NCBI GenBank assembly: GCA_011364925.1
Contig: RDOA01000014.1
Coordinates: 1-64,000 of the forward strand
Length of the DNA stretch: 64,000 nt
Reading direction: 5' to 3'
Source: Promethearchaeota archaeon
GTDB lineage: Archaea > Asgardarchaeota > Lokiarchaeia > Sigyniarchaeales > SOKP01
Notes under the pieces: model-generated
What the model was told of the DNA's origin: nothing
The model's input: the letters and a program-made list of their open reading frames with translations, nothing else
Databases searched by the model: none
Shown: positions 34,613 through 51,266 of the stretch, piece by piece
How the letters are laid out: each line of letters starts with the position of its first letter
Position numbering within the stretch: the stretch's first letter is position 1
Position numbers and translations under genes: made by a program

Positions 34613-35341
34613 ATGACCTATAATATCATAGTAGATTTATCACATAAAGAAAAAGTCGAGGAATTTCCAGATTTTACTTTAGGGGATGACGATTTAGAAG
34701 TAGACTACATCGATAAGAATGAGGGGCCTATTGACTATGATTTACTTGAGGATTACGATATTTTATTCATTGGTAATATTCAACAAACTAAAGATGGCAA
34801 GGAAGACAAACTCACTAAAGACGAACTACTAGCAATCAAACGATACATTGGAGAAGGCGGAGGTCTCTTCCTAACCACTGGTGATGGAGGAGATAAAGAC
34901 ATTCCAATGAAATCAGGATCTATTAGAGTTCTTTATAAAATGACAGGAGTTAAAAGGTATTGGAATGGATTAATCCAAGAGGCTCCGTCACACTTTTTAG
35001 TAAATAAGCAAAATATTCTGATCACTGAGTTATTTAACCACCCTATTACCGAAAAAATTTCCGAAGTGGTTCTCCCTAACTGCACATTCTTTACTATTAC
35101 TGAAGAGGATGTTGAGGATATAATTGTAACTTCGGATAAAGCTGAATTCAAATATTTCATTGATGATGAGATAGGAGGAATTGGAACGGTTCCAGTTTGT
35201 GTTGTAAGCGAATTTTTTAGTGGAAGGTGCGTTACTATTGGCTCATCGGATTGGCTAATAGAAGATGAATTCGGTCTTGACGCTGGAGACAATATTTCTT
35301 TTCTTTCTAATATTATAAAATGGCTAAGTTTTGAAATATGA
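34613..35341 (+). CDS. GIFT (GldG/IFT52)-like / DUF4350 GATase-fold protein
   Basis: DLSHKE, YDILFIG, ELLAIKRYIGEGGGLFL, HPIT, GRCVTIGSSDWL...DN..FLSNIIKWL. Confidence 0.65.
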   Translation: MTYNIIVDLSHKEKVEEFPDFTLGDDDLEVDYIDKNEGPIDYDLLEDYDILFIGNIQQTKDGKEDKLTKDELLAIKRYIGEGGGLFLTTGDGGDKDIPMKSGSIRVLYKMTGVKRYWNGLIQEAPSHFLVNKQNILITELFNHPITEKISEVVLPNCTFFTITEEDVEDIIVTSDKAEFKYFIDDEIGGIGTVPVCVVSEFFSGRCVTIGSSDWLIEDEFGLDAGDNISFLSNIIKWLSFEI

Positions 35342-37771: not shown

Positions 37772-38554
37772 CTATTTCTTTATTTCGCTATATTTTTTCA
37801 TTATTAAATTACAAACACTCGAGATGGGATTGATTTTTTGTTTCCAGTTTGAAAATTCTGGAAATGTACCTGCATCCACCACATATAATTGATTAGTTTT
37901 ATTCTCTCTTACAAGATCTAAATGACCAAATGATAAATTATACTTATTTTTCCATTTTCTTAGATATTCTTCAATTTCTTCGTCAAATTCGATTTTTATC
38001 ATTTGACTATGCTCATTTGATAAAGGTTTTTTCTCACAAATACAGGAATTATCCCCTATAAAGTATGCTAAATAATGCACTCCATCAATATATTTTTCTA
38101 AATAGAGGGGTTCCTCGAAATCTTTATTAATATCTTTCGTGCTGTTAAGAATTCTAATATCATTACTACCTGATCCAAAAATTGGTTTAGAAATTAGGGG
38201 AAAATAGGAATTCTTGAGTAACTTTTTTAGAATTTTAAGATATCCCATATATACTTGAGGATATGCGAGGCCAGTATTTTTAATAGCATAATACGATTCA
38301 ATCCGATCTTTATGAGTATGACTTAGACTCGTATTTGGTATAACTGGAACCATATTTGCTTCTAAAAAATACCCAGCATAAAGATAAAGCATACGTTTTG
38401 ACTTCAGTATATAAAAATCGTTCTCTAAGAGTGAATCGTTTATACAAAGATTATCTGCCGTAAAAATTTTAACTTGATGGCCTATATTTTCGTAGTAATC
38501 CTTTATTTTCCAAGTGAAACCTCCAGTTCTTTTCGATAAAATCCCTATCTTCAT
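37772..38554 (-). CDS. ATP-grasp protein, ITPK1/RimK-like (degenerate metal-binding motif)
   Basis: FYILKSK, FPLISKP.FGSGS, LEKYIDG, FGHLDL, YVVDAGTFPEF. Confidence 0.75.
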   Translation of the reverse strand: MKIGILSKRTGGFTWKIKDYYENIGHQVKIFTADNLCINDSLLENDFYILKSKRMLYLYAGYFLEANMVPVIPNTSLSHTHKDRIESYYAIKNTGLAYPQVYMGYLKILKKLLKNSYFPLISKPIFGSGSNDIRILNSTKDINKDFEEPLYLEKYIDGVHYLAYFIGDNSCICEKKPLSNEHSQMIKIEFDEEIEEYLRKWKNKYNLSFGHLDLVRENKTNQLYVVDAGTFPEFSNWKQKINPISSVCNLIMKKYSEIKK

Positions 38555-38567
38555 TTCTTTATTAAAT

Positions 38568-39395
38568 TCAACCTTTAGCTTGTTTTATTAAGTAATCTAC
38601 TACATATTTTGGTCCATTCTTAATGTAATTAAAATTAGGTGAAGAATTTATATCAGATAAATAAAAGGCACCGTTTTCTAATTTTAGAAAATCCATGGAA
38701 CAAATTTGTAATCCAATTGCTTCTGCCGCTTTAAATGCAATTTCAGTCAATTCTGGAACATTTTCAATTTCTATCCTAGATTCCATCTTGTTAGGATTTA
38801 TTAACACAGGTACTTGTTTATAGTAAAATATGTCCTCACCGATAATGTATATCTTAAATTCCCATTTACTCCTCACAAAATCCTGAAAATATACATGTGA
38901 ATATTTAGGTTTAATGCCACTGGATTCATCAATAGCTCGCATATCACTAACTTCAAAAAACCCTTCCTTTTCTTTAATTTGAGGTTTGAAGGCATAATTT
39001 TTTTGATCAATGATATTTTTCATAATGTATTCCTTGTAAGGAGGAGAAGTCCCTATAGGATTTAATGTGAAACTGGGAATGCAAATACCCGCTTTTTTTA
39101 AATAAACACTATTCAAAAATCTATTAAACGCGAGCGAAATGCTTTTCGATGAATTAATAACAGGAATGTTAGTTTCTCTCTCGATTAATTTAACCAGACT
39201 TATAATCAAATCTCCTTTTGCTTTAACAAAAAATATGTTTTCATTAAATTCATAATGAGAGAAATCTATAAAGTATTCTTCTTCAAGATATATAGATACT
39301 TCTACTTTATTCTTGCAATAATCCAAAAATTGGGATGATTTCTTTTCCAAATGATAATTGTCAGTAATCAAACCAATTTTTATCAAATGACTCAC
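38568..39395 (-). CDS. ATP-grasp protein, ITPK1-like
   Basis: IGLIT...EKK, FFVKAK, IPVIN, FQDFV...EFKIYIIG, IGLQICSMDF, LSDINSSPNF. Confidence 0.75.
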   Translation of the reverse strand: MSHLIKIGLITDNYHLEKKSSQFLDYCKNKVEVSIYLEEEYFIDFSHYEFNENIFFVKAKGDLIISLVKLIERETNIPVINSSKSISLAFNRFLNSVYLKKAGICIPSFTLNPIGTSPPYKEYIMKNIIDQKNYAFKPQIKEKEGFFEVSDMRAIDESSGIKPKYSHVYFQDFVRSKWEFKIYIIGEDIFYYKQVPVLINPNKMESRIEIENVPELTEIAFKAAEAIGLQICSMDFLKLENGAFYLSDINSSPNFNYIKNGPKYVVDYLIKQAKG

Positions 39396-39543
39396 AATAT
39401 TCTAAGTTATTTGGGGAAAATTGAATATTTTGTATTAGTGATTAGTATAATTCTAATTTACATTAAAAGAATTGCGTGAATCAATAATTACATTTATATA
39501 TTTTAATTTGTTTTAAAGAAATCAAATTGATCGGGTTTTTTAA

Positions 39544-40455
39544 ATGGCGAATAATATAAAAAGAAAATATATCGGAGCCATTTGCAATAGGGATCTTGAA
39601 GTAATGGAAAATATCAAGAAGTTCCTTATCAAAAATTATAATATTACTATAGTAAATTTGATGAAAAATGGATTTGAATCGTTTAATGCTAAATATTTAG
39701 AAAAAAAAATGAAAAAGTATCCATTTTCTTTTTTAATCGTTAAACTTGTTTCTCAACAAGAAAATAAACGAATATATGATATTCTTGATGACCTTTGCCC
39801 AGATATTCCGATGCTGAATGATTTAGAGTCTGTTCAAATTTGTGAAAGTAGATTTGATACTTTTAAAAAAATTCAAAGTGTATATAAAAAAATTAGTATT
39901 CCACAATTATTTAATTCTAAAATTGATGCTTTAGAAGCATCTCGTAATGGTGTTGACATAATCGTTAAACTTGATACTCATAATATACCCGATCTTCCTA
40001 AAAACGATAGGATTATTGGAATTGCTAAAAGTCCTTCAGAGTTAAGCGATTTAATTAATAATCGGGACGAAAAGAACTTATTTTTTCAGGAATATTTAGG
40101 AGAGCATGATATTATATATAAGGTATATGTAGTAGGTAATTGGGTTATCTCAATCACAGCTCAGAATCGTTTACACCAACTTTCTGAATTATCACCATTA
40201 GATTTGATGCATATTCGAGTTCCAGTAGAGGAGAAATTTAAAAGGAGGATTATCCGTCTTGGTCGTAAACTTGGATTATCAGTTTTTGGCGTAGACTATA
40301 TTCTAACTGAAAATGGACCATATATAGTTGATATCAACGATTTCCCTAGTTTTAATAACATTCCTGAAGGTGTGAGCTTAGTCTCAGATTATATATATAA
40401 TCTAATTAGTATGAGAGAAGTTTATCAAAAAGCTTTCCTTAAAGTTAAGAGTTAA
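39544..40455 (+). CDS. ITPK1-like inositol phosphate kinase (ATP-grasp)
   Basis: LIVKL, FQEYL..HDIIYKVYVVG, LGLSVFGVDYI and YIVDINDFPSF closely parallel ITPK1 QNFINH..VLYKVFVVG / LGVSLFGIDII / VIDINAFPGY. Confidence 0.8.
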   Translation: MANNIKRKYIGAICNRDLEVMENIKKFLIKNYNITIVNLMKNGFESFNAKYLEKKMKKYPFSFLIVKLVSQQENKRIYDILDDLCPDIPMLNDLESVQICESRFDTFKKIQSVYKKISIPQLFNSKIDALEASRNGVDIIVKLDTHNIPDLPKNDRIIGIAKSPSELSDLINNRDEKNLFFQEYLGEHDIIYKVYVVGNWVISITAQNRLHQLSELSPLDLMHIRVPVEEKFKRRIIRLGRKLGLSVFGVDYILTENGPYIVDINDFPSFNNIPEGVSLVSDYIYNLISMREVYQKAFLKVKS

Positions 40456-40459
40456 AAGT

Positions 40460-40903
40460 TTATTTTCTCTTTTTTTCTCTTTTCACCATCTCCAATAGTT
40501 CAATTACTGCCCCAAATACTTCCACAGTATCCATATAAGCATACTTCAATCTTGGTGGAAACAAGCCCGATTGTACAACCTCTATTCCTTCTTGTTGAAA
40601 TCTGTTAATATTTTTTTCCAAGTCCTCAACAAACACTCCAAAATGGTGGAGTCCCACTTTCTGACTGTCGACAAACTCTTTATATATAGAATCGCCTTTA
40701 AGCCATTGAAATATTTCTATCGATGTAGATAAGCATCGACTAACGCCCATCTTTATTGAAAATTTCGTTTCTCTGCCCCTATAAATAGCGGGATGATCTA
40801 AATCTTCAGAAAATTCAAATTTAGGCATGTTAAATAGGGATTCCATCCTTAATGCGTGTTTTTCCGGTTCTTGATATATATAACATATATGCTGAATCTT
40901 CAA
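40460..40903 (-). CDS. VOC family protein (methylmalonyl-CoA epimerase / glyoxalase-like)
   Basis: IQHIC, IEIFQ, GLHHFGVFV, YAYMDT...G..IELL. Confidence 0.88.
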   Translation of the reverse strand: MKIQHICYIYQEPEKHALRMESLFNMPKFEFSEDLDHPAIYRGRETKFSIKMGVSRCLSTSIEIFQWLKGDSIYKEFVDSQKVGLHHFGVFVEDLEKNINRFQQEGIEVVQSGLFPPRLKYAYMDTVEVFGAVIELLEMVKREKKRK

Positions 40904-41068
40904 GTTTGAAAAATCTACTTCTAAATTGGTTTCTATATTTTGTCCCCTCTACAAACAAATTAAAGTTTTTATGAAAATATTATATGTGTTTGAATTTAAA
41001 CCTATTAGAGAAATATTTTTCTTCCTCAAAATTTACATTCAAACCAAACAATATTTGAAATAAGTATC

Positions 41069-41593
41069 ATGGTACGCAGAATTGAAGTAGTTCCACACGA
41101 TCCAAATTGGAAAAATAAGTTTAATTTAGAAGCAAGAATTATCAGATCGATATTTAACAAGGAAATTATAGCGATTCACCATATAGGAAGCACTGCCATC
41201 CCGCAAATTAGTGCTAAACCTATTATTGATATTTTAGTTGAGGTACATGATATTGATAAAATAGATGATTACGATTTTAAAATGATTGAACAAGGATATA
41301 TTCCCAAAGGAGAGTCTGGTATTCCTAGAAGGAGACTTTTTATAAAAGGAAGCGAAGAAGTTAGAACATTTCACATCCATATCTTCGAGAAAGGGAATTC
41401 AGAAATAAAACGACTTTTAAATTTTAGAAACTATATGATCGCGCATCCTAACGAGGCACAGAAGTATAGTCGATTAAAAGAGAATCTTGTGCGAGAGTAT
41501 CCCGAAGATATTAGTGGCTATATAGATGGAAAAGATAAGTTCGTTAAAAATATTGATAAAAAAGCCAAAGATTGGAAAGAAAAGCTAAAATAG
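41069..41593 (+). CDS. GrpB family protein (nucleotidyltransferase-like)
   Basis: HHIGSTAIP...AKPIIDI, HIHI, FRNY, Y..LK, Y.DGK. Confidence 0.92.
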   Translation: MVRRIEVVPHDPNWKNKFNLEARIIRSIFNKEIIAIHHIGSTAIPQISAKPIIDILVEVHDIDKIDDYDFKMIEQGYIPKGESGIPRRRLFIKGSEEVRTFHIHIFEKGNSEIKRLLNFRNYMIAHPNEAQKYSRLKENLVREYPEDISGYIDGKDKFVKNIDKKAKDWKEKLK

Positions 41594-41614
41594 GTACAAA
41601 AAGAGACAGGTAAA

Positions 41615-42355
41615 ATGTCGTTTGCTATCTTTTTTGATGATGGGGGTGTACTTAATGATAATGATATACGTGGTCCCCAATGGAGTGCATTCTGTGGAGA
41701 ATTCTTTCATTCAAAGTTTGGAGGAGATCCGAAAGTATGGGGTGAAGCAAACCGTAAAATAACCACATCATTAGCAACTATTTTTTGGGGTGATACGAAA
41801 GTGATTTCTCAAGATTACATTACGTTTTACGCTAACTATAAGAGTGAGTGGGTAAAGCAGATGTTTGAAGAATATGGAAGATCTGTACCACCTGAAAAGG
41901 ATCGTGAAAGAATTTTCGATACTACGATAGAATATGTATGGCCAAAAATCCATTCGGCTATACCTGGAATCGTTGAGTGTGTTAAGGAACTCTTTTCAAA
42001 AGGTTTTCTTCTTTACACTTCTACTGGTTTGCATTCAAAAGAAATAAAGATGGTCCTCGAAGGGATGGGCATAAAGCAATTTTTTAGTGAGTTTTTTGGT
42101 CCAGATTTGATAAATACTCGAAAGCGAAATCCCAAATTCTTTGATCATATCTTCAAAAAGGTAAATATTGACTCAAGTAAAGTGATTGTTATTGAAGATA
42201 ACCCGGAATTTATTGGTTATGCTCTTAAAACAGGAGCTCAGGTAATTCAAGCATGTGTAACGGGGGAATATCCTCCTCAATTTCCTTTATATGTTGAAAA
42301 TATGCATGAACTTCCTAATATAATTGAAAATCTTATAAAAACGCACGATCTATAG
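41615..42355 (+). CDS. HAD-family hydrolase
   Basis: FFDDGGVL motif I, ST motif II, K.NP, VIED motif IV. Confidence 0.85.
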   Translation: MSFAIFFDDGGVLNDNDIRGPQWSAFCGEFFHSKFGGDPKVWGEANRKITTSLATIFWGDTKVISQDYITFYANYKSEWVKQMFEEYGRSVPPEKDRERIFDTTIEYVWPKIHSAIPGIVECVKELFSKGFLLYTSTGLHSKEIKMVLEGMGIKQFFSEFFGPDLINTRKRNPKFFDHIFKKVNIDSSKVIVIEDNPEFIGYALKTGAQVIQACVTGEYPPQFPLYVENMHELPNIIENLIKTHDL

Positions 42356-42491
42356 TTCTCACAATTTTTTGGTACTTCAAGCGACCTCTTACCTTACATT
42401 TTTAAACAGTTCCGAATTTTATTATTTTAATAATCAATCTTAAATGGTTCTAAATTTTATTATTATAATCGTATTTAGGGAGTCCATATTA

Positions 42492-43760
42492 ATGACAATA
42501 TCAAGTAAAATTGTACAGAACGAAAAAGTGCGAACTATAGTTAATAAGGATTACGAGGATAAAGAATTTCTAAATCTAATGAAAAACATCACAGCTGATT
42601 CCATTAATTCTAATGCCTATTACAAAGAACTCGCTGTTAAAAAAAACTATAATATTGATGATGTGAATCAAAGGGATGATTTAGCTCTAATACCGTATAT
42701 TACGGCATCTACTTTCAAAGAATCTGTGGGAATGTATAAGAAATTATTGAAAATTCCCTTAGAATCCCCTGAGTTTAATACTTGGAACGTGTCGTCTTGT
42801 ACAACTGGGGATCCCTCATTAGTAGGGAGATCTTCAGACGATTTAGATTTTTTAGCCAGTATGACCATAAAGTGCATTTATGAGTTCATCCCAATACCGG
42901 TGGAGGAACACAATCAATACGGGACTATCTCAATGAATTTTGCTCCTAATGTTAAGTTCTTAGATCGGATTGCGATGAGATACACTGAAATGAGACCAGT
43001 GAAATTATATACCAGCACATTGAACGATATTACTACTAGAATCACCAAACCAATGTATTTGATCAAGTTCTTTATCTTCAAAGCGTTAAAAGAGATAATC
43101 AAGAAACGTGGTTTAAGAGGTGCTTTCGGAATTAATGCTCAACATGTTATAAAAACAATTAACAACAACTCAAGGTTACCACCAGATGATCAAAAAAACA
43201 TTTCAATTGGGGGAAGCCTTCAATTATTAAACACATTTATGAATAAATATTTAAAAGAGGCAAACATAAAATTTGACTTACCAAACTGTTATATAACTAC
43301 TGGTGGTGGTGGATGGAGTGGACATAAATCTCAACTAAAATATCCTCCCATTGAGAAAAAACGGTTTGTTTCAGACTGTATTGAGTATTTTGGAACAAAA
43401 AGTGAAAATATTACTGATATGTATGGTTTTACAGAAACACCAATAGTATTTGGAAGTCATTGGTCAGAAAAGCATCAGGATTTTATATTTCACTGTCCAC
43501 CTCAAGCTAGAACTATAATTCGAGACATTAATAATCTAGAACCTCTAAAAAGTGCGGGAGACACGGGATTTTTGGAAGTTCTTACCCCTTTTGGTGTGTC
43601 TGCCTCAGTAAATCATGCTATTCTCGTTGATGACCTTGTACAACTTATTTCTAAGCATAAGTGTCTTGAATGTGGTTATGAAGGTTGTACTTTCATAGTT
43701 CAAGGAAGAATCAAAGACAAAACAGGACTAGGATGCTCCTCTCTCGTTGAATGGATCTAG
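42492..43760 (+). CDS. LuxE-like acyl-protein synthetase (ANL adenylating superfamily)
   Basis: IPYI...FK, SSCTTGDPS P-loop, TGGGGW, DMYGFTE, GFLEVLTP, DD, and C-terminal GR...GCS carrying the acyl-acceptor Cys. Confidence 0.8.
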   Translation: MTISSKIVQNEKVRTIVNKDYEDKEFLNLMKNITADSINSNAYYKELAVKKNYNIDDVNQRDDLALIPYITASTFKESVGMYKKLLKIPLESPEFNTWNVSSCTTGDPSLVGRSSDDLDFLASMTIKCIYEFIPIPVEEHNQYGTISMNFAPNVKFLDRIAMRYTEMRPVKLYTSTLNDITTRITKPMYLIKFFIFKALKEIIKKRGLRGAFGINAQHVIKTINNNSRLPPDDQKNISIGGSLQLLNTFMNKYLKEANIKFDLPNCYITTGGGGWSGHKSQLKYPPIEKKRFVSDCIEYFGTKSENITDMYGFTETPIVFGSHWSEKHQDFIFHCPPQARTIIRDINNLEPLKSAGDTGFLEVLTPFGVSASVNHAILVDDLVQLISKHKCLECGYEGCTFIVQGRIKDKTGLGCSSLVEWI

Positions 43761-43831
43761 ATTATGTTAATATTTTTCTTTTATAAAAAAAGATTAATTT
43801 CGAACCATTGATTTTAAATCGGACTCAAGAT

Positions 43832-44923
43832 TTACCTTTCGCGTCTATTCTGTATGAACTTTATCAATCGTCTTTTTGCTATATTATCGTCCAATTGTTC
43901 GACAGGATGCTTATTAAAGAACGAGCAAGCAGAGTGTAATATCCCACCAATTTTGCGATCTCTAGCAATTTTGGAAATACGGACACAATCAGCTATAATT
44001 CCCGCTGAATTATTTCCATCTTCTACGAACATAGTAATATCAACTCTTACTGGAGCTCCTCCAAAAACCCTGCCTTCGAGTCTCATATACGCTTCTTTCT
44101 GATTCTTTAAAAACGGGATGTAATCAACAGCAGACACTTGACATTCCACATCCTCCTTATTTTGAAGATTAGCAACGACAGCTTCAGTTTTAGACTGTCG
44201 TTTTCCCTTTTCGTAAACCAAATTTCCATTAGGTTGAGGTGTTAATAAGTTACAAAAATCAGACGATCCACCCCAATCGAGTTGAATTGTGCGATCGAGA
44301 ATTGCCCCTCTCATAGGAAACAAATTTGTTAATGAGCGATGAATAATAGTTGCTCCGATTTGGGATTTTACATCGTCTCCTATCAAGGAAAGGTTTAACT
44401 CTTGAGCTTTTTTCACGATTTCTGCATCATGTACTACTGGAGAAGGCATACCATTAACGATACAAGCACCAGCATTAAGAGCAGCCATTGCATAGTATTT
44501 TACTGCCTGATGACATCCCGTCGGCAATAAAATAACGGCAACATCAACATTTTTACATCTCATTTCTTCGGTTACATCAGATACGAGCTGTTTTTCGTCA
44601 GTAGGAATTATATTTTTTATATTGCTATTTAAACCGTCCATTATCGGTCCTTTTAACACTGAAGCATTTAGGAGATTGGGTTCATATCTTTTCGTATTAC
44701 AATTTGGGCTAACAAAAATCGCTTCACTTAAATCTTTACCAACTTTATTCGAATTAACATCAAATCCTAAGACGAAATTAATATCATCAACCTGGTATTG
44801 AGTAATTTCCGGTAACAGACCGATGATATCGTTAGGATCTCTCTTATATTTTTCAACACCTTGAACTAAGGCGCTCGCAACATCTCCTATACCGATAAGA
44901 CAAGTGTTGATTTTATTCGCCAT
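43832..44923 (-). CDS. ino1: Myo-inositol-1-phosphate synthase (archaeal/actinobacterial type, divergent)
   Basis: GIGDVASALVQG, FDV...KVGKDLSEAI, LPTG, GDDVKSQIGATIIHR, SKTEAV, DYIPFL..QK, NSAGII.D.VR..K.A.DR.IGG. Confidence 0.9.
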   Translation of the reverse strand: MANKINTCLIGIGDVASALVQGVEKYKRDPNDIIGLLPEITQYQVDDINFVLGFDVNSNKVGKDLSEAIFVSPNCNTKRYEPNLLNASVLKGPIMDGLNSNIKNIIPTDEKQLVSDVTEEMRCKNVDVAVILLPTGCHQAVKYYAMAALNAGACIVNGMPSPVVHDAEIVKKAQELNLSLIGDDVKSQIGATIIHRSLTNLFPMRGAILDRTIQLDWGGSSDFCNLLTPQPNGNLVYEKGKRQSKTEAVVANLQNKEDVECQVSAVDYIPFLKNQKEAYMRLEGRVFGGAPVRVDITMFVEDGNNSAGIIADCVRISKIARDRKIGGILHSACSFFNKHPVEQLDDNIAKRRLIKFIQNRRER

Positions 44924-45098
44924 GATAAATCATTTATTTTGATCGTATTAAAAACTTACAGAATGACCTAAAGTTAAAAATGCAATATATTAGCATTATG
45001 ACACATTTAATAATATTTTGAAAATGAAATCTCAAAGTTCTTAAATTTATTGATATTAATAGTTTCAATTTAAACCCATAAATTCGAGTTTAGAGCAA

Positions 45099-47936
45099 AT
45101 GGAAACATCAAAAAAGAAGATATATTTAGCGTTATCACCACATATTAATTATTATCATTCATATAGAGGCGATTCTAAAGGAGAAACGGGATTTGGTAAA
45201 GATCTCGCAATGATGAGGGGGATCATTGATGAGTTAGATAAAATTGAAGATATGGGATTAGGGTCGATAAAAATATCATGGGATTATGGTGATACCTTCT
45301 GGTCAATTCAGCTCCAAAAGGAGTTTCAACCAGATGTGCTTGACAGAGTCATAGAAAGGTGTAAAAAAGGTAAAGATGAGGTTTTAATTGGTTCTTGGGG
45401 AAATGTAATGCAACCTGTTATGGACACTGAAGAATTCTTGCAACAACACCAATGGTTTTTAGAGAATTCAATGGGTATAGGTGTCAATCAATTATTTCCC
45501 GGAAGAGTAGCTCCATACGCACGAACTCAAGAATCGATGTTTTCTCAAGGAATGATTGAGCTTTACAACGATATTGGTGTAAAAGGAATATGCAACTACT
45601 ATTCTGTTTATGGATTTGATGTAGCAAGACCCTTCCTCAATCCTCGATTAGATTGGAATCAAAGATACGGTTTGGTAAAATTTAAATCTACTTTGTCAGA
45701 CGCCTCGTGCTTAATGATACCCACGTACGGATTTGGGGACATTCTTGATTTTTGTTCAATGAAAAGATGGTTTAAAATTATAAGGGAAAAACAGTTAGGT
45801 GGAGAAATCAAAGGTCACGCTCTTCTTTTTCTAAACTTTGATATGGATTATGAAAATTGGCTTGGAATGAAGTTACCAAACTTTTTGAGCTGGCTACCGA
45901 ATTCTCGGGGTTTAATGGAATTTGCAGAGGTTGTAAATCAATTAGAATATGTCGAGTTTACCAACTTGTTGGAAATTGTACCTAAATTGGAGGTACATGG
46001 TGAGACAACTCTTAGAGAGGATGTTGCTGATGGGATGTGGAATGGATATTATAATTGGTCTCAAAAGTTTAACAACACGAGGTTTTGGACAGTAGGACAA
46101 CGGGCACGATGGTTGAAATGTATCTCAGATACATTTACTACTAAAAAAATTATCGAAAACTCTGCTTCGGATATTAATAAGTTAATAAGGGACAAAAGTG
46201 AATCTCCCGAGACTTATTTTAAAAATAAAATCCTACTTAATTCAACAACTAATTTTGGAATGGCTATGCCATTTCTTCACTCTGATAGGCGAAAAACAGC
46301 TATTAGTTATGCATTGAAAGCTTTTGATAGTTCTCAAAAAGCATTTGAGATAGTTTTGAAAGAATATTCAACTGAACTAGACAAAAATCTTAAAAAATAC
46401 GAAAATATGCTATTAATTTTACCTATAACTAAGAGAGGAGTATCTGAGAAGGAAACTATACCGTTAAATGATTATATATTAGCTCAATCGATACTACCCT
46501 CAAAAATTTGCGACTTAATAAAAGAAAATGATAAAAAAATTAGACTGCTGAACATTTCTTCAGAAAAAGCATTAATATCTTTCTCCATCTATAAAAAACG
46601 TGATGGAGATCGCTCAAATTTCTGGTTCGAAGCACTGATACCTCGATCAGATTTTAACTTCGATGACTCGAACAGTGCTGCCTATGCTTTAACGATTTTC
46701 GAATCAAATCAAGAACAAAGTAAATCAGAAGGAAATGAATTAACAGCAACGAAAAATTCATTAAAAAACAAATTTCTCTCATTAGAATTTAATGAACTTG
46801 GAAAGATAAATTCCTTTAAATATAACGACACTGAATTCGCATGTCCGAACTTTTTAGATTCATCGATAACCTACGGTAAAGCAAAGAATCCGAAATCGTA
46901 TTATTCAAATAAAGATGAAATCATTGTCCATCGAAAAGGTGACGATGGATTTTCTGCTTCAATTTCTATTACCAGCGAATTTCTTATAGAAAAAGAACAC
47001 AAAGTTCAAGTTGAAAAAGTGCTCAAGTTATATGCAGATTTACCATACTTATTCATATCTGTTACAATGAAAATACCCGACATTAGAGGTGAAACAACGA
47101 CTATTGGAAAAAGCGACGGAACTTCTTATTTTGTAGAGGAACAGTTTCAAGAAAAATGGCAAGAAATCATACCTTGTGAGATTAGATCAAACATTATCGG
47201 CTTAAATGAACCTCTAAAAATCTGGAAGCGTAATTTCTTAGGGGTTGTAGATCATTTTAATCTTGACATGAAAGAGGTTGATCCTAAAAACGCTAATATA
47301 GATTGTTTAGTAGCAAATATATCAGATGGATGGATGGCTCTATCAAATGAAGAAAAAGGAATACTCGTTGGTTTTAATTCACTGAAAGCCTCAAATTTTG
47401 CATTTTCCCCGATTAAAATAAGAGATAAAGGTTTTGGAGATCTTGCGATTAAAGGTCAACAAGTAAGAATTAATCCGTTTGGAACATATTATGGAAAATT
47501 GCTTCATTACTGGTCGGAAGGAAACGCTCACGCACAAAAGATTGTTTCCAAGTTAATTGGTACCAATGAATCTACAGCTGCGACATTCAGTGGTAAGAAT
47601 GTTTCGTTTGATTTACTAATATCTCCTTACTTAGCGAATTCCCCTCCTGAACCTGTTAGAAATTTTGCAGATCATTACTCTTTCGAACCATTAGTCTTAT
47701 TCAAACAAAAGGAAGAAAGTCAAATCTGCTCTAATCACGCTCCTTATGTCAAAGAGAAAGAGAAGATGATTGAAGAATTTGGGGTCGAAGATGTAATGAA
47801 AATGACTTATATTGAATGGGTGAAAAAAGTAAATGAGGGATATAAACCCTCTGAGTCAAGATCCAGTGGAGGATTACCGAATATATCGATTGTTAACATG
47901 ATAAGAGTTTTAATTGATGGGATAAAAGGAAGGTAA
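45099..47936 (+). CDS. Large GH38/GH57-like glycoside hydrolase-fold protein
   Basis: N-terminal H-x-N-x-x-H-S-Y barrel start, R.QE and NFDMD.E.W; C-terminal beta-supersandwich pattern (LKNKFLSLEFNELGKINSF; LKLYADLPYL) as in alpha-mannosidases. Confidence 0.55.
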   Translation: METSKKKIYLALSPHINYYHSYRGDSKGETGFGKDLAMMRGIIDELDKIEDMGLGSIKISWDYGDTFWSIQLQKEFQPDVLDRVIERCKKGKDEVLIGSWGNVMQPVMDTEEFLQQHQWFLENSMGIGVNQLFPGRVAPYARTQESMFSQGMIELYNDIGVKGICNYYSVYGFDVARPFLNPRLDWNQRYGLVKFKSTLSDASCLMIPTYGFGDILDFCSMKRWFKIIREKQLGGEIKGHALLFLNFDMDYENWLGMKLPNFLSWLPNSRGLMEFAEVVNQLEYVEFTNLLEIVPKLEVHGETTLREDVADGMWNGYYNWSQKFNNTRFWTVGQRARWLKCISDTFTTKKIIENSASDINKLIRDKSESPETYFKNKILLNSTTNFGMAMPFLHSDRRKTAISYALKAFDSSQKAFEIVLKEYSTELDKNLKKYENMLLILPITKRGVSEKETIPLNDYILAQSILPSKICDLIKENDKKIRLLNISSEKALISFSIYKKRDGDRSNFWFEALIPRSDFNFDDSNSAAYALTIFESNQEQSKSEGNELTATKNSLKNKFLSLEFNELGKINSFKYNDTEFACPNFLDSSITYGKAKNPKSYYSNKDEIIVHRKGDDGFSASISITSEFLIEKEHKVQVEKVLKLYADLPYLFISVTMKIPDIRGETTTIGKSDGTSYFVEEQFQEKWQEIIPCEIRSNIIGLNEPLKIWKRNFLGVVDHFNLDMKEVDPKNANIDCLVANISDGWMALSNEEKGILVGFNSLKASNFAFSPIKIRDKGFGDLAIKGQQVRINPFGTYYGKLLHYWSEGNAHAQKIVSKLIGTNESTAATFSGKNVSFDLLISPYLANSPPEPVRNFADHYSFEPLVLFKQKEESQICSNHAPYVKEKEKMIEEFGVEDVMKMTYIEWVKKVNEGYKPSESRSSGGLPNISIVNMIRVLIDGIKGR

Positions 47937-47954
47937 TATAAAAGGCGATCTTGT

Positions 47955-48968
47955 GTGAAAGAAAAAATGAGAGCGTTATTATTTCCCGAACCATGGGTTG
48001 TGAAAATAATTAATATAGAAATCCCAAAACCAAAACCCAACGAGATTTTGGCTCAAATGATATCGGTTGGCATCTGTGGTAGTGATGTAGGAATTTTTGA
48101 GGGTGAACATTGGATAGTTGCTAACGAACCAGGAGGACATGGACACGAAACGGGTGCAATTGCGGTTGAAGTGGGAAGTGAAGTAGAGGGAATATCTATA
48201 GGAGATCATTTAGCCCGGATGGGACAAGGATATGCAGAGTATTCCACTCATGTAAATGTGATTGGACATGGTAAGGATGAATTCATTGGGGCTTTACCTA
48301 TTGTGAGAAATGATCTCTCCATGGACGAAATCTCTTTTGCAGACGCTGTAGGTTGCGCGATTAATTGTTATGAAAGAGCTGAATTTGAGAGAATAGAAGG
48401 CGAGAAGAAGGCTATTGTTCTAGGTCTTGGACCCATAGGACTTATTCTTACTCAAATTTTGCTAAAAAATGGGATTGAAGTTGCAACATCCGAACCATAT
48501 CATCATAAAAGAGATCTGGCAGAAAAATGGGGTGCTAAAGTATTTAATCCTAATGATTTTAGTCGAGTGACTCATGGAAAAGAGACTGTAGCTGATGAGA
48601 TTAAAAAAAGTTTTGGTGAGGCTCAAGCGGTTTTTGAGATGGTGGGTCTTAATGAAACTCTCCTAAATGCTATAGATTTGGTTAAATCTGGATTTCGAGT
48701 AATGGTATTTGGCGCTCAAAAAATGCAACAAGTGCCATATGTTAACTGTAGAAGGAAAGGTGTAGAACTAGTTTATCCCGAAGCAATGGTAAACTCGAAG
48801 ATAGATAAAGATTACTGGAACGATGCTTTAAACTTAATTGCAAGCAAAAAACTTGATTTAAATAGCCTTATTTCAGACAGAATAACCTTAGAACAAGCAG
48901 TTGATGCATTCAAATACTATGATCGGGAAAAATGGATAAAAATAATTGTAGAACCTCAAAAAAAGTAA
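47955..48968 (+). CDS. Zinc-dependent medium-chain (polyol/cyclitol) dehydrogenase
   Basis: GICGSD, GHE, GLGPIG, FEMVG; lacks the structural-zinc four-Cys loop. Confidence 0.88.
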   Translation: MKEKMRALLFPEPWVVKIINIEIPKPKPNEILAQMISVGICGSDVGIFEGEHWIVANEPGGHGHETGAIAVEVGSEVEGISIGDHLARMGQGYAEYSTHVNVIGHGKDEFIGALPIVRNDLSMDEISFADAVGCAINCYERAEFERIEGEKKAIVLGLGPIGLILTQILLKNGIEVATSEPYHHKRDLAEKWGAKVFNPNDFSRVTHGKETVADEIKKSFGEAQAVFEMVGLNETLLNAIDLVKSGFRVMVFGAQKMQQVPYVNCRRKGVELVYPEAMVNSKIDKDYWNDALNLIASKKLDLNSLISDRITLEQAVDAFKYYDREKWIKIIVEPQKK

Positions 48969-48991
48969 ATAAAATTATTATCAATTAATAA

Positions 48992-50266
48992 TTAATACTC
49001 TAACTTTAAAGTCTCCTTTACTTTCATAAATATCGGAATTGAACCGATAAAAAAGAAGGGTCCTAAAAGAAATATCCATTGAATTCCAAATAGAGTTGCT
49101 ACTATCCCTCCTGCGATGGAACCAATAATTTGAGAGGCAGTATTAACTATGTTTAATATTCCTGTAAATTTACCACGCTTTTCTTCAGGTAACAAATCTT
49201 GTGACCAAGCATTAAATGGCGTCATCATCGATAATAATCCTACTAATACAAAAGGTAATCCAATCATAAATAGAATAAAGTTTCCCAAAGCAAACGGCAT
49301 TATAGAAAATCCTATACTAATTAAAATAATTACCAGAGGAATGTATTTTTTTCTACCAAATTGATCTGATAATTTACCTAATGATATCGTCGCTACGAAT
49401 ACAACTGGAAATGCGACGCCTATTCCTAATAAGAGTTGCCATATTTCTAATCCTTGCCGTTGGATGAAGATCATTAGAAAAGGCATTATCGAACCAATCC
49501 CCGATTGGAAAATTACTAATGCTAAAAGAATCTTGAAGAATTCTTTTTGAGATTTCAACTCTTTCAAATTAAAAGTTTGCCTTATTTCATCGAGAAACCT
49601 TTTCTTCTCTGGAAATTCTGAAATCGGTCTTTCTCTTATGAATGTAAAACCTAAAGTACCAACTGACAAAAATACAAATCCTCCAATAAAAAAGATGAAA
49701 ATATGACCCTGTTGACTTATAATTATGTTGTTAATATCCCGAGGATCATTGACCCCAAATATTTGACTTCCGAGCATAAAAAACGCAACACCGACTATTA
49801 AACCTATATAGCTAATTGAGTTTACTATTCCATTTGCCCTACCTCTTTTTTCAACCTCAAATGTATCGGGGATAAGAGATCTTTCAGCAACGAGAAACGC
49901 ATTGGAAGCTATTCCGATAATCACCACATCGATTATTAAACATAGAATATAATTCCCGGAAAAACCAAAAAAGATCATTGCTATACCAGCAATCGTTCCA
50001 CCAAATAATAAATACGGTCTTCTACGCCCAAATCTAGTTCTCGTATTATCACTTATAATACCCCATACAATCATGATTATAAGTCCCATCGCAGCTGATA
50101 AAGAGACCATCAATGAGATGTATAGTTCTGGTAAAAAAAGGACATCATACAAGTACGTATTAAAAAAATTTTGTTCAAAAAAAAAGAAAAGATAATCTCC
50201 CAAATATAGTAAACCAATAAAGAATATCTGTCTTCGAAGAAATTTGCTAAATGTTTTTTCATTCAT
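48992..50266 (-). CDS. MFS sugar transporter
   Basis: GIISDNTRTRFGRRRPY, RGRANG, GKLSDQFGRK; 12 TM segments. Confidence 0.9.
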   Translation of the reverse strand: MNEKTFSKFLRRQIFFIGLLYLGDYLFFFFEQNFFNTYLYDVLFLPELYISLMVSLSAAMGLIIMIVWGIISDNTRTRFGRRRPYLLFGGTIAGIAMIFFGFSGNYILCLIIDVVIIGIASNAFLVAERSLIPDTFEVEKRGRANGIVNSISYIGLIVGVAFFMLGSQIFGVNDPRDINNIIISQQGHIFIFFIGGFVFLSVGTLGFTFIRERPISEFPEKKRFLDEIRQTFNLKELKSQKEFFKILLALVIFQSGIGSIMPFLMIFIQRQGLEIWQLLLGIGVAFPVVFVATISLGKLSDQFGRKKYIPLVIILISIGFSIMPFALGNFILFMIGLPFVLVGLLSMMTPFNAWSQDLLPEEKRGKFTGILNIVNTASQIIGSIAGGIVATLFGIQWIFLLGPFFFIGSIPIFMKVKETLKLEY

Positions 50267-50372
50267 TTTGAAATTCTAACGCTTTAATTATATTTTTAAA
50301 ATGTAAAATGAAAAACAAAGTAAGTATTGAAGGAAAATTTAAGAATATTCTGCGCTTCTTTAAAGTTAATTT

Positions 50373-51266
50373 ATGATAAGAAATGTCGTTTTTTCAGCAA
50401 GGGAGGATCATGATGTAGTGAAAGGCGTGATAAATAGGCTTAAGAAATTACCTAATATTAATTTGCATTTTCATGACCCCACAAAACAGTTTTTTAATCT
50501 TTCTAGAATGCCTAAATCAATTAAAGAAGCTGATTTAATAATTGTTAAGGTGAGAAACGATTGTTCGATCGATTTATTACATTATGCGAAAACAAATCAT
50601 ATTCCTACGCTACATAGTATAGATACAGTGCTTATGTGTAAGAATAAAATATCCCTTGACTATGCTCTTAGAAAAGTGTTATCAACTTATCCTACAATTA
50701 GAAAAAAGTTTTCATTTCCTAACTCTTGGAATAATAACATTACAGATGTTAATGTTTTTAAAAAATGGGCTTCTAATAAACTTCCAATTGTAATTAAAAG
50801 CCATTACCAACACGACAAGTATAATAGATTCAACTTTCTGGTCAGAAAGATTGAAGAGATTGATACATTTTGCGAGAGATATAAACATCTTTTATATTAC
50901 GATGTATACATACAAAAATTTATCGAGTGTGATGGTTTTGAAAGAAAAGTTTATGTGATAGGAGAAAAAGTTTATGGAATCATCCGAGAAAATCCGATTT
51001 ACATATTTTTGCGAGACAAACCTAACCAGATTAATGTAGATGATATTAAAAGAAAGGAATTTAAGATATCTGATGAAATTAGAGAGTTAGCTGAACTTTT
51101 GGCTCATGAGCTTAAACTTAAAATATTCGGTTTCGATTTAGTAAAACCTGTAGATAAGGATCGTTATTATCTAATTGATTTAAACGATTTCCCTGGATTT
51201 AGAGGAATAAAGAATGTAGAAGATCAAATAACTAATTGTTTGCTTGATGTTATTAGCAACTTGTAG
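50373..51266 (+). CDS. ITPK1-like inositol phosphate kinase (ATP-grasp)
   Basis: DLIIVKV, LPIVIKSH, IQKFIECDGFERKVYVIG, LKLKIFGFDLV, YYLIDLNDFPGFRG. Confidence 0.8.
   Translation: MIRNVVFSAREDHDVVKGVINRLKKLPNINLHFHDPTKQFFNLSRMPKSIKEADLIIVKVRNDCSIDLLHYAKTNHIPTLHSIDTVLMCKNKISLDYALRKVLSTYPTIRKKFSFPNSWNNNITDVNVFKKWASNKLPIVIKSHYQHDKYNRFNFLVRKIEEIDTFCERYKHLLYYDVYIQKFIECDGFERKVYVIGEKVYGIIRENPIYIFLRDKPNQINVDDIKRKEFKISDEIRELAELLAHELKLKIFGFDLVKPVDKDRYYLIDLNDFPGFRGIKNVEDQITNCLLDVISNL

Follow-up and report, generated by a model that had tools for sequence, protein, structure and literature searches.

A Lokiarchaeial cluster of ATP-grasp proteins and myo-inositol-1-phosphate synthase orthologous to the published Lokiarchaeum LcIK/IPS locus

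Gene content of the locus and its published orthologue

The locus described here occupies positions 37772 to 51266 of a stretch of 64,000 nucleotides (the window) of contig RDOA01000014.1, from the genome of a Promethearchaeota archaeon of the class Lokiarchaeia (assembly GCA_011364925.1). Four genes of ATP-grasp proteins, named K1 to K4, lie around a gene of myo-inositol-1-phosphate synthase (MIPS). The five open reading frames were confirmed at the positions at which a preliminary description of this DNA, made from its letters alone, had placed them, and are as follows:

37772-38554, minus strand: K1, 260 aa, divergent ATP-grasp protein, predicted partner of K2
38568-39395, minus strand: K2, 275 aa, ATP-grasp protein with kinase-type K181, D235 and D248-x-N250
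39544-40455, plus strand: K3, 303 aa, ITPK-like kinase (PF05770, 36.3 bits), orthologue of KKK40178.1, divergent from K2
43832-44923, minus strand: MIPS, 363 aa (PF01658, 74 bits)
50373-51266, plus strand: K4, 297 aa, ITPK1-like paralogue (PF05770, 44.9 bits)

The order of strands (minus, minus, plus, minus, plus) speaks against a single operon and for divergent pairs. K2 and K1 share a strand, with K2 lying 13 bp upstream. MIPS is 3.4 kb distant from K3 and 5.4 kb from K4, with seven unrelated genes in between. A scan of the locus for sigma-70-type promoters and terminators, by a model unsuited to archaea, gave results at chance level.

The window locus is an orthologue of the LcIK/IPS locus published for Lokiarchaeum. 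Four ITPK1 homologues, LcIKA-D, were identified in that organism by Desfougères et al. 2019 PNAS (PMC6900528), and the article speaks of 'two pairs of LcIK genes flanking two IPS genes' and proposes a link to the synthesis of inositol-3-phosphate (Ins3P) (Fig. 2C). Contig JYIM01000498 of Lokiarchaeum GC14_75 has the arrangement SlyD-(HAD)-K1-K2-K3-MIPS-K4-UppP, matching the window in all five genes and in their order, with identities of 51% (K1), 56% (K2), 57% (K3), 73% (MIPS) and 59% (K4). The clustering of kinases with the synthase, which had been taken as undescribed, was thus already in print, and the route proposed there from glucose-6-phosphate (G6P) through Ins3P to higher inositol phosphates (InsPs) is the one proposed for the window. 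The two loci differ in seven cargo genes inside the window cluster and in a HAD gene of 322-326 aa after K1, which is missing in the window; moreover, JYIM01000498 carries one IPS gene, in contrast with the two of the article.

K3 of GC14_75 is KKK40178.1, annotated as inositol 1,3,4-trisphosphate 5/6-kinase. Arg156 is cited for LcIKC in PMC6900528. This residue is present in K3 and K4 of GC14_75 and not in K1 or K2, so LcIKC would be the orthologue of K3 or K4. LcIKA-D may correspond either to K1-K4 or to two strain copies of K3 and K4.

The ATP-grasp proteins of the cluster

The motifs reported earlier for three of the proteins were confirmed (K2, KIYIIG and DINSSP; K3, KVYVVG and DINDFP; K4, KVYVIG and DLNDFP), as was the N-terminal hhhK lysine of all four (K51 in K1, K58 in K2, K67 in K3 and K59 in K4). 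The corresponding motif of K1 is D-A-G-T-F-P, with no lysine in the strand. K1-K4 are deep paralogues, with pairwise identities of 19-29% and BLAST E values between K1 and the others of 0.002-1.

By sequence comparison, K3 and K4 are clearly assigned to the ITPK-family inositol-phosphate kinases, K4 being the most ITPK1-like paralogue. Both exceeded the curated PF05770 cut-off of 23 bits, and the best PDB matches of their family profiles were ITPKs (all of them, in the case of K3). Residues were mapped to human ITPK1 through a full ITPK homologue, P0240 (PF05770, 166 bits), using the metal-ligand numbering of the human enzyme. The D...D-x-N metal ligands and the lysine equivalent to K199 are found in both proteins (D251, D263, N265 and K193 in K3; D255, D269, N271 and K192 in K4). 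Invariant residues of K3 are K67, R103, K142, R156, K193, D251 and D263, and K4 keeps K59, H147, R152, K192, R205, D255, D269, N271 and G275. The InsP contacts of human ITPK1 are numbered H167, K199 and R212 in PMC6900528; in the sequence alignment all three columns are basic in K4 (R152, K192 and R205, respectively). With eukaryotic ITPK1 (PF05770; PDB 2qb5, 1z2n, 7pup, 8oxe) the cluster kinases have in common the ATP-grasp fold, the K-x-Y/F-x-x-G strand and the D...D-x-N ligands. They differ from it in being only about 20% identical and in having no match to the PF17927 N-terminal domain and no equivalent of K18; the R212 equivalent is missing in K3, and K1 and K2 are below the family cut-off.

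In maximum-likelihood trees K1-K4 were separated from RimK/LysX and placed with eukaryote-type ITPKs and bacterial D-x-N ATP-grasp proteins (100/99). K3 and K4 joined the eukaryote-type ITPK clade with support just under the threshold (ultrafast bootstrap, UFBoot, 94 and Shimodaira-Hasegawa-like approximate likelihood ratio test, SH-aLRT, 97; in the larger set UFBoot 76 and SH-aLRT 90), in a group that also holds one bacterial and the Thermoplasmatota K3; the rows taken as eukaryote-type were identified from their motifs and Pfam scores and not from their names. There is moderate tree support for K3/K4-type proteins as the prokaryotic proteins closest to eukaryotic ITPK. K1 and K2 fell outside this clade, among bacterial sequences. 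Approximately unbiased (AU) tests could reject neither the union of the K1-K4 families in one clade (p 0.20) nor the placement of K1 with RimK/LysX (p 0.24). A further ITPK-like family of about 320 aa, the P0140 group (D-x-N-D-F-P-G), was sister to K4 in the trees.

K1 and K2 are of a different character, and the earlier view of four ITPK1-like kinases is supported for K3 and K4 and not for these two. K1 scored 22.2 bits against PF05770, below the cut-off, and 24.9 bits against TIGR00768, whose cut-off is 143 bits. K2 had no match to PF05770, and scored 22.5 bits against the RimK Pfam profile and 48.5 bits against TIGR00768. The structural model of K1 (predicted local confidence, pLDDT, 92.9) had its best fold match in LysX/ArgX (Z 25.0, root-mean-square deviation, rmsd, 2.6, 251 residues aligned; ITPK1, Z 18.6). 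That of K2 (pLDDT 89.5) matched ArgX (Z 22.3, rmsd 3.2, 257 aligned) and RimK (22.2) before PPIP5K2 (20.5) and ITPK1 (18.6), and the best PDB match of the K2 profile was likewise ArgX (E 5e-5; EhITPK1, E 0.015). For K1 and K2, the best matches by sequence as well as by fold are LysX/ArgX/RimK. The RimK/LysX/ArgX ligases (TIGR00768; PDB 3vpb, 5k2m, 4iwx) also have a similar compact size. Their E-x-N, however, is replaced by D-x-N in K2-K4 and by D-x-G in K1, and the cluster proteins score 25-49 bits in TIGR00768, far under the family cut-off, in contrast with 220 bits for the true RimK-family gene of the same genome.

K2 retains both the D-x-N (D248, N250) and the lysine equivalent to K199 (K181), and its invariant residues are K58, K60, R92, K126, K181, K203, R207, D235, D248 and N250. 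In K1, D213 and D227 are kept, the segment D227-x-G229-x-F-P-E-F is invariant with Gly where the metal-binding Asn would be, and Leu or Ile occupies the K199 column, leaving no equivalent lysine. K2 is the likely catalytic subunit of the pair and K1 a non-canonical partner. The gap between the two genes was at most 24 bp in 64/64 loci, and the pair was together in every locus examined. The predicted K2-K1 complex scored 0.89, with at least 97% contact agreement between runs, partner pLDDT of at least 88 and a pseudo-symmetric interface; the best of 3 controls, a set without homodimers or K3/K4 partners, scored 0.00, and the mark used for such scores is reached by 58/80 solved pairs and 2/110 mismatched pairs. 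The model supports a K2-K1 heterodimer.

Synthase, conserved linkage and distribution

The cluster MIPS is well over the PF01658 cut-off of 27 bits and matches short-type MIPS/Ino1 (M. tuberculosis 1gr0; TIGR03450) over the full length, this being its best PDB match (E 4e-75). It keeps the canonical catalytic set D183, D184, K186, D222, K241, K245, K276, D302 and K338, with an N-to-D change at position 216. Unlike short-type Ino1, its clade has QLDWGG for QLNxGG, and the Lokiarchaeial members have GxGD for GxGN. Cluster-type MIPS forms a separate long-branch clade (support 1.0) that, within the sets examined, was confined to the vicinity of K1/K2; the closest relatives of the window protein are 73-86% identical, almost all from metagenome-assembled genomes (MAGs) of Promethearchaeota/Lokiarchaeia. 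No second MIPS was found in the window genome (100% complete), in which the cluster gene was the sole match. Most genomes of the genus hold only the cluster type, which suggests that it took over from the housekeeping MIPS and also supplies inositol lipid synthesis. Elsewhere in the window genome there are genes of six CDP-alcohol phosphotransferases and one IMPase-family gene.

The possibility that this MIPS is an Ari2-like synthase of five-membered cyclitols, raised by the KRQSK in common with PDB 6k96, was rejected: canonical Asgard MIPS also have K-R-x-S-K, and the Ino1 score is 256 vs 141 bits. A second, degenerate MIPS paralogue (QLDxGGGxES; K186 to Q/M/E/L, D222 to E, K276 to R) is present in most Asgard families; it is conserved across the phylum (L096-L125), often in tandem with the canonical gene, and one Lokiarchaeial contig (L052:44-3648) carries degenerate, canonical and cluster-type genes in tandem.

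Synteny was surveyed in 80 loci anchored on the MIPS of the window, with counts limited to those with enough flank. K3 adjoined MIPS tail to tail in 67/68 loci, the two genes being no more than 71 bp apart in each of the 74 loci that show this, vs 3.4 kb in the window genome. K1, K2 and K3 were all present in 57/58 loci and K4 in 47/48. The MIPS-kinase linkage noted in the preliminary description is therefore conserved in related genomes, and it is beyond chance. It is not mere background synteny: SlyD, radical SAM, GIFT-domain and proteasome beta-subunit genes are equally conserved in the family, yet the linkage of the cassette persists in unrelated neighbourhoods. The GIFT-domain gene of the window (34613-35341) has a weak IFT52 GIFT-domain match (20.6 bits, below the cut-off), and its neighbour in almost every related locus is the gene of the proteasome beta subunit.

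The seven genes between the kinases and the synthase are cargo:

40460..43760: glyoxalase-like, GrpB, HAD hydrolase and LuxE-like acyl-protein synthetase genes (Pfam), in 0/80 related loci
45099..50266: variable cargo, GH57/GH38-like 945-aa protein, Zn-dependent dehydrogenase and MFS/GPH transporter genes

The first four, in the K3-MIPS interval, were rejected as pathway members on that count. In the 48 loci with enough flank the GH57/38-like gene was present in 11, the dehydrogenase in 8 and the MFS transporter in 20, and a role of these three as an arm for inositol uptake and catabolism was likewise rejected, given their presence in only 8-20/48 loci and a best NCBIfam match (IolM) of 74 bits vs a cut-off of 450. 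The 945-aa protein (45099-47936) has no Pfam match, and Atlas features suggest a GH57/GH38-like glycoside hydrolase. The LuxE-like acyl-protein synthetase (42444-43760) is one of a set of at least four paralogues in the window genome. The 322-326 aa HAD gene absent from the window, with a DFGG motif and a very Lys/Arg-rich C-terminal tail, follows K1 in 48/60 loci (e.g., L139:1709-2677) and is a candidate phosphatase of the pathway.

The distribution samples consist of incomplete genomes, in which a gene that is not found is not necessarily absent. Strong K3 matches were obtained in 9/17 genomes of the window's family and 0/93 of 24 other families, among 110 other Asgard genomes, and K1-K4 were found in 0/37 MIPS regions from other Asgard families. 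Within the class, K2 was found in 56/75 genomes of the window's family, a count from which three weak cross-hits to K4 are excluded, and in 0/15 from five other families. One genome of the sister Lokiarchaeial family, a single contig of 4.4 Mb, gave no match to K4 or PF05770, so that cultured Lokiarchaeia may lack the cluster. Two genomes of that sister family (L176 and L177) have PF05770 matches over the cut-off, which may belong to the P0140 group.

Outside the Asgard archaea, MIPS-K1-K2-K3 is present in marine Thermoplasmatota (profile scores 572, 260, 263 and 175 bits, respectively), K2 being found in 3/151 Thermoplasmatota genomes, and a Burkholderiales MAG carries K3-K2-K1 in the same divergent layout. 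In another Promethearchaeota MAG, K2-K1-MIPS are linked in a different neighbourhood. K3-K2-K1 with the cluster MIPS fits better a mobile cassette than an ancestral Asgard pathway. K4 is found alone at the SlyD-UppP site in sister genera (g3/g4), without K1-K3 and this MIPS, and is the older resident of the site. The locus probably has two layers, with the old K4 at the SlyD-UppP site and K3-K2-K1 plus the MIPS clade gained or lost as a block. The earlier suggestion of a prokaryotic precursor of eukaryotic signalling is not sustained, in the sense of a general Asgard one, by a cluster that is confined to part of the Lokiarchaeia in the samples and recurs in Thermoplasmatota and a bacterium.

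Related arrays were observed in bacteria. In GCA_040960765.1, which the cluster names place in Acidobacteriota, a DUF5916 gene is followed by two pairs of ITPK-like ATP-grasp genes, four in all, that flank genes of a mannitol dehydrogenase-family protein and an MFS transporter (L083:2942-8804); by analogy, this array is a possible polyol-phosphate parallel of the window cluster. A bacterial operon (L090:380-8855) comprises ATP-grasp, MFS, DUF5916, long-type MIPS, APH-family kinase and ATP-grasp genes, with DUF5916 and MFS in common with the former. A literature search found no bacterial ITPK clusters, and an earlier description of such arrays may exist.

Proposed pathway, alternatives and meaning

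Taken as a whole, the explanation that we favour, and consider probable though by no means certain, is that of an orthologue of the LcIK/IPS locus in which MIPS supplies Ins3P, K3 and K4 are the kinases, K2-K1 is a heterodimer and the locus has two layers. MIPS, with NAD+, would cyclise G6P to Ins3P, as expected from family knowledge and its conserved catalytic residues. K3 and K4 would phosphorylate InsP1 at ring hydroxyls, with the gamma-phosphate of ATP as donor group, so that low inositol polyphosphates would arise by a lipid-independent path, a step shown in part for LcIKC in yeast. The synthesis of Ins3P by MIPS and its phosphorylation by K3 and K4 are rather likely. The predicted heterodimeric K2-K1 enzyme may further modify a product of this route. 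The clustered route from G6P through InsP1 to higher InsPs, as first outlined, retains the conserved cluster of MIPS and ITPK-like genes, the ITPK-family K3 and K4, and LcIKC, which, according to PMC6900528, partly restores inositol hexakisphosphate (IP6) in plc1-deleted yeast; its four ITPK1-like kinases are not retained.

Several observations weigh against this explanation. The K2-K1 complex score may reflect likeness to LysX/RimK homo-oligomers, and the set of complex controls was restricted as stated above. K3 has R156 and K193 at InsP contacts but, in the sequence alignment, the non-basic A206 in the R212 column. The cluster MIPS, as the only one in the genome, probably also feeds inositol lipids. 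One of the Thermoplasmatota genomes has K2-K1 alone, and there is no MIPS within 10 kb of the Burkholderiales K3-K2-K1; the substrate of K2-K1 therefore need not come from MIPS. A profile search (PF03770) found no IPK-family kinase in the window genome. This family is usually taken as eukaryotic; the Methanosarcina acetivorans control genome gave a match over the cut-off. A search for inositol pentakisphosphate (IP5) 2-kinase gave no match, but the controls gave none either, so that this negative speaks neither way. No measured inositol polyphosphate in any Asgard archaeon was found in the literature. The yeast rescue by LcIKC was partial and dependent on yeast downstream kinases (PMC6900528); with no IPK-family kinase found in the genome, an InsP6 route in the archaeon is at most hypothetical.

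That all four proteins are inositol-phosphate kinases, dividing the ring positions and building InsP5/InsP6, is unlikely. The best trees do unite the four with D-x-N ATP-grasps and eukaryotic ITPKs, all four are linked to MIPS, and K2 keeps K181, D235, D248 and N250 together with several invariant basic residues. Nevertheless, K1 has neither the metal-binding Asn nor the K199-equivalent lysine, its grouping with RimK/LysX is not rejected by the AU test, and both K1 and K2 miss PF05770 and have folds nearer to LysX/ArgX/RimK than to ITPK1.

These same folds and the best sequence matches would agree with K2-K1 as an ATP-grasp ligase that, by acyl-phosphate chemistry as in RimK/LysX, modifies a small molecule, cofactor or protein with an amino acid or amine, the link to MIPS being either incidental or a matter of a modified inositol. 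K1 also keeps the ligase-typical loop K-P-x-x-G-S-G-S, and the pair stands without adjacent MIPS in the Burkholderiales MAG and one Thermoplasmatota genome. This reading is nonetheless doubtful in view of the TIGR00768 scores far below those of the true RimK-family gene, of the K and D-x-N of K2 where RimK/LysX have R and E-x-N, and of the fact that no LysW-like carrier was noticed next to K2-K1.

In a third alternative the kinases would take a different polyol or cyclitol phosphate as substrate, or would phosphorylate free inositol destined for lipids or solutes, outside a route to signalling polyphosphates. This would suit the bacterial arrays around a mannitol dehydrogenase-family gene or with MIPS, APH-family kinase and MFS genes, and the long-branch MIPS clade with its change at position 216, but is quite improbable given that LcIKC, orthologous to K3 or K4, sustains the formation of IP6 in yeast and that recombinant ITPK1s were inactive on free inositol (PMC6900528, whose text does not itemise the orthologues tested).

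The linkage and the proposed pathway being already in print, and the window locus being one of dozens of orthologous loci, the remaining novelty concerns the K2-K1 pair, a conserved and probably heterodimeric ATP-grasp enzyme without an assigned reaction, and the spread of the cassette outside the Asgard archaea. Tentatively, catalytic K2 and K1, with its degenerate D-x-G, may constitute an undescribed heterodimeric ATP-grasp enzyme that, together with K3 and a dedicated MIPS clade, forms a horizontally moving cassette of Lokiarchaeia, marine Thermoplasmatota and Betaproteobacteria for a soluble inositol polyphosphate or modified inositol phosphate, within a wider set of prokaryotic ITPK-like arrays around polyol-phosphate synthases. 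The five-gene set is small enough for reconstitution in vitro, which would indicate how far prokaryotic phosphorylation of inositol proceeds without yeast kinases. The distribution in the samples searched corrects a common reading of the 2019 article: a cluster limited to part of the Lokiarchaeia, and common to Thermoplasmatota and a bacterium, is weak evidence that the archaeal ancestor of eukaryotes had inositol-phosphate signalling. If the cassette is as proposed, soluble inositol-phosphate chemistry would be no signature of Asgard archaea and eukaryotes.

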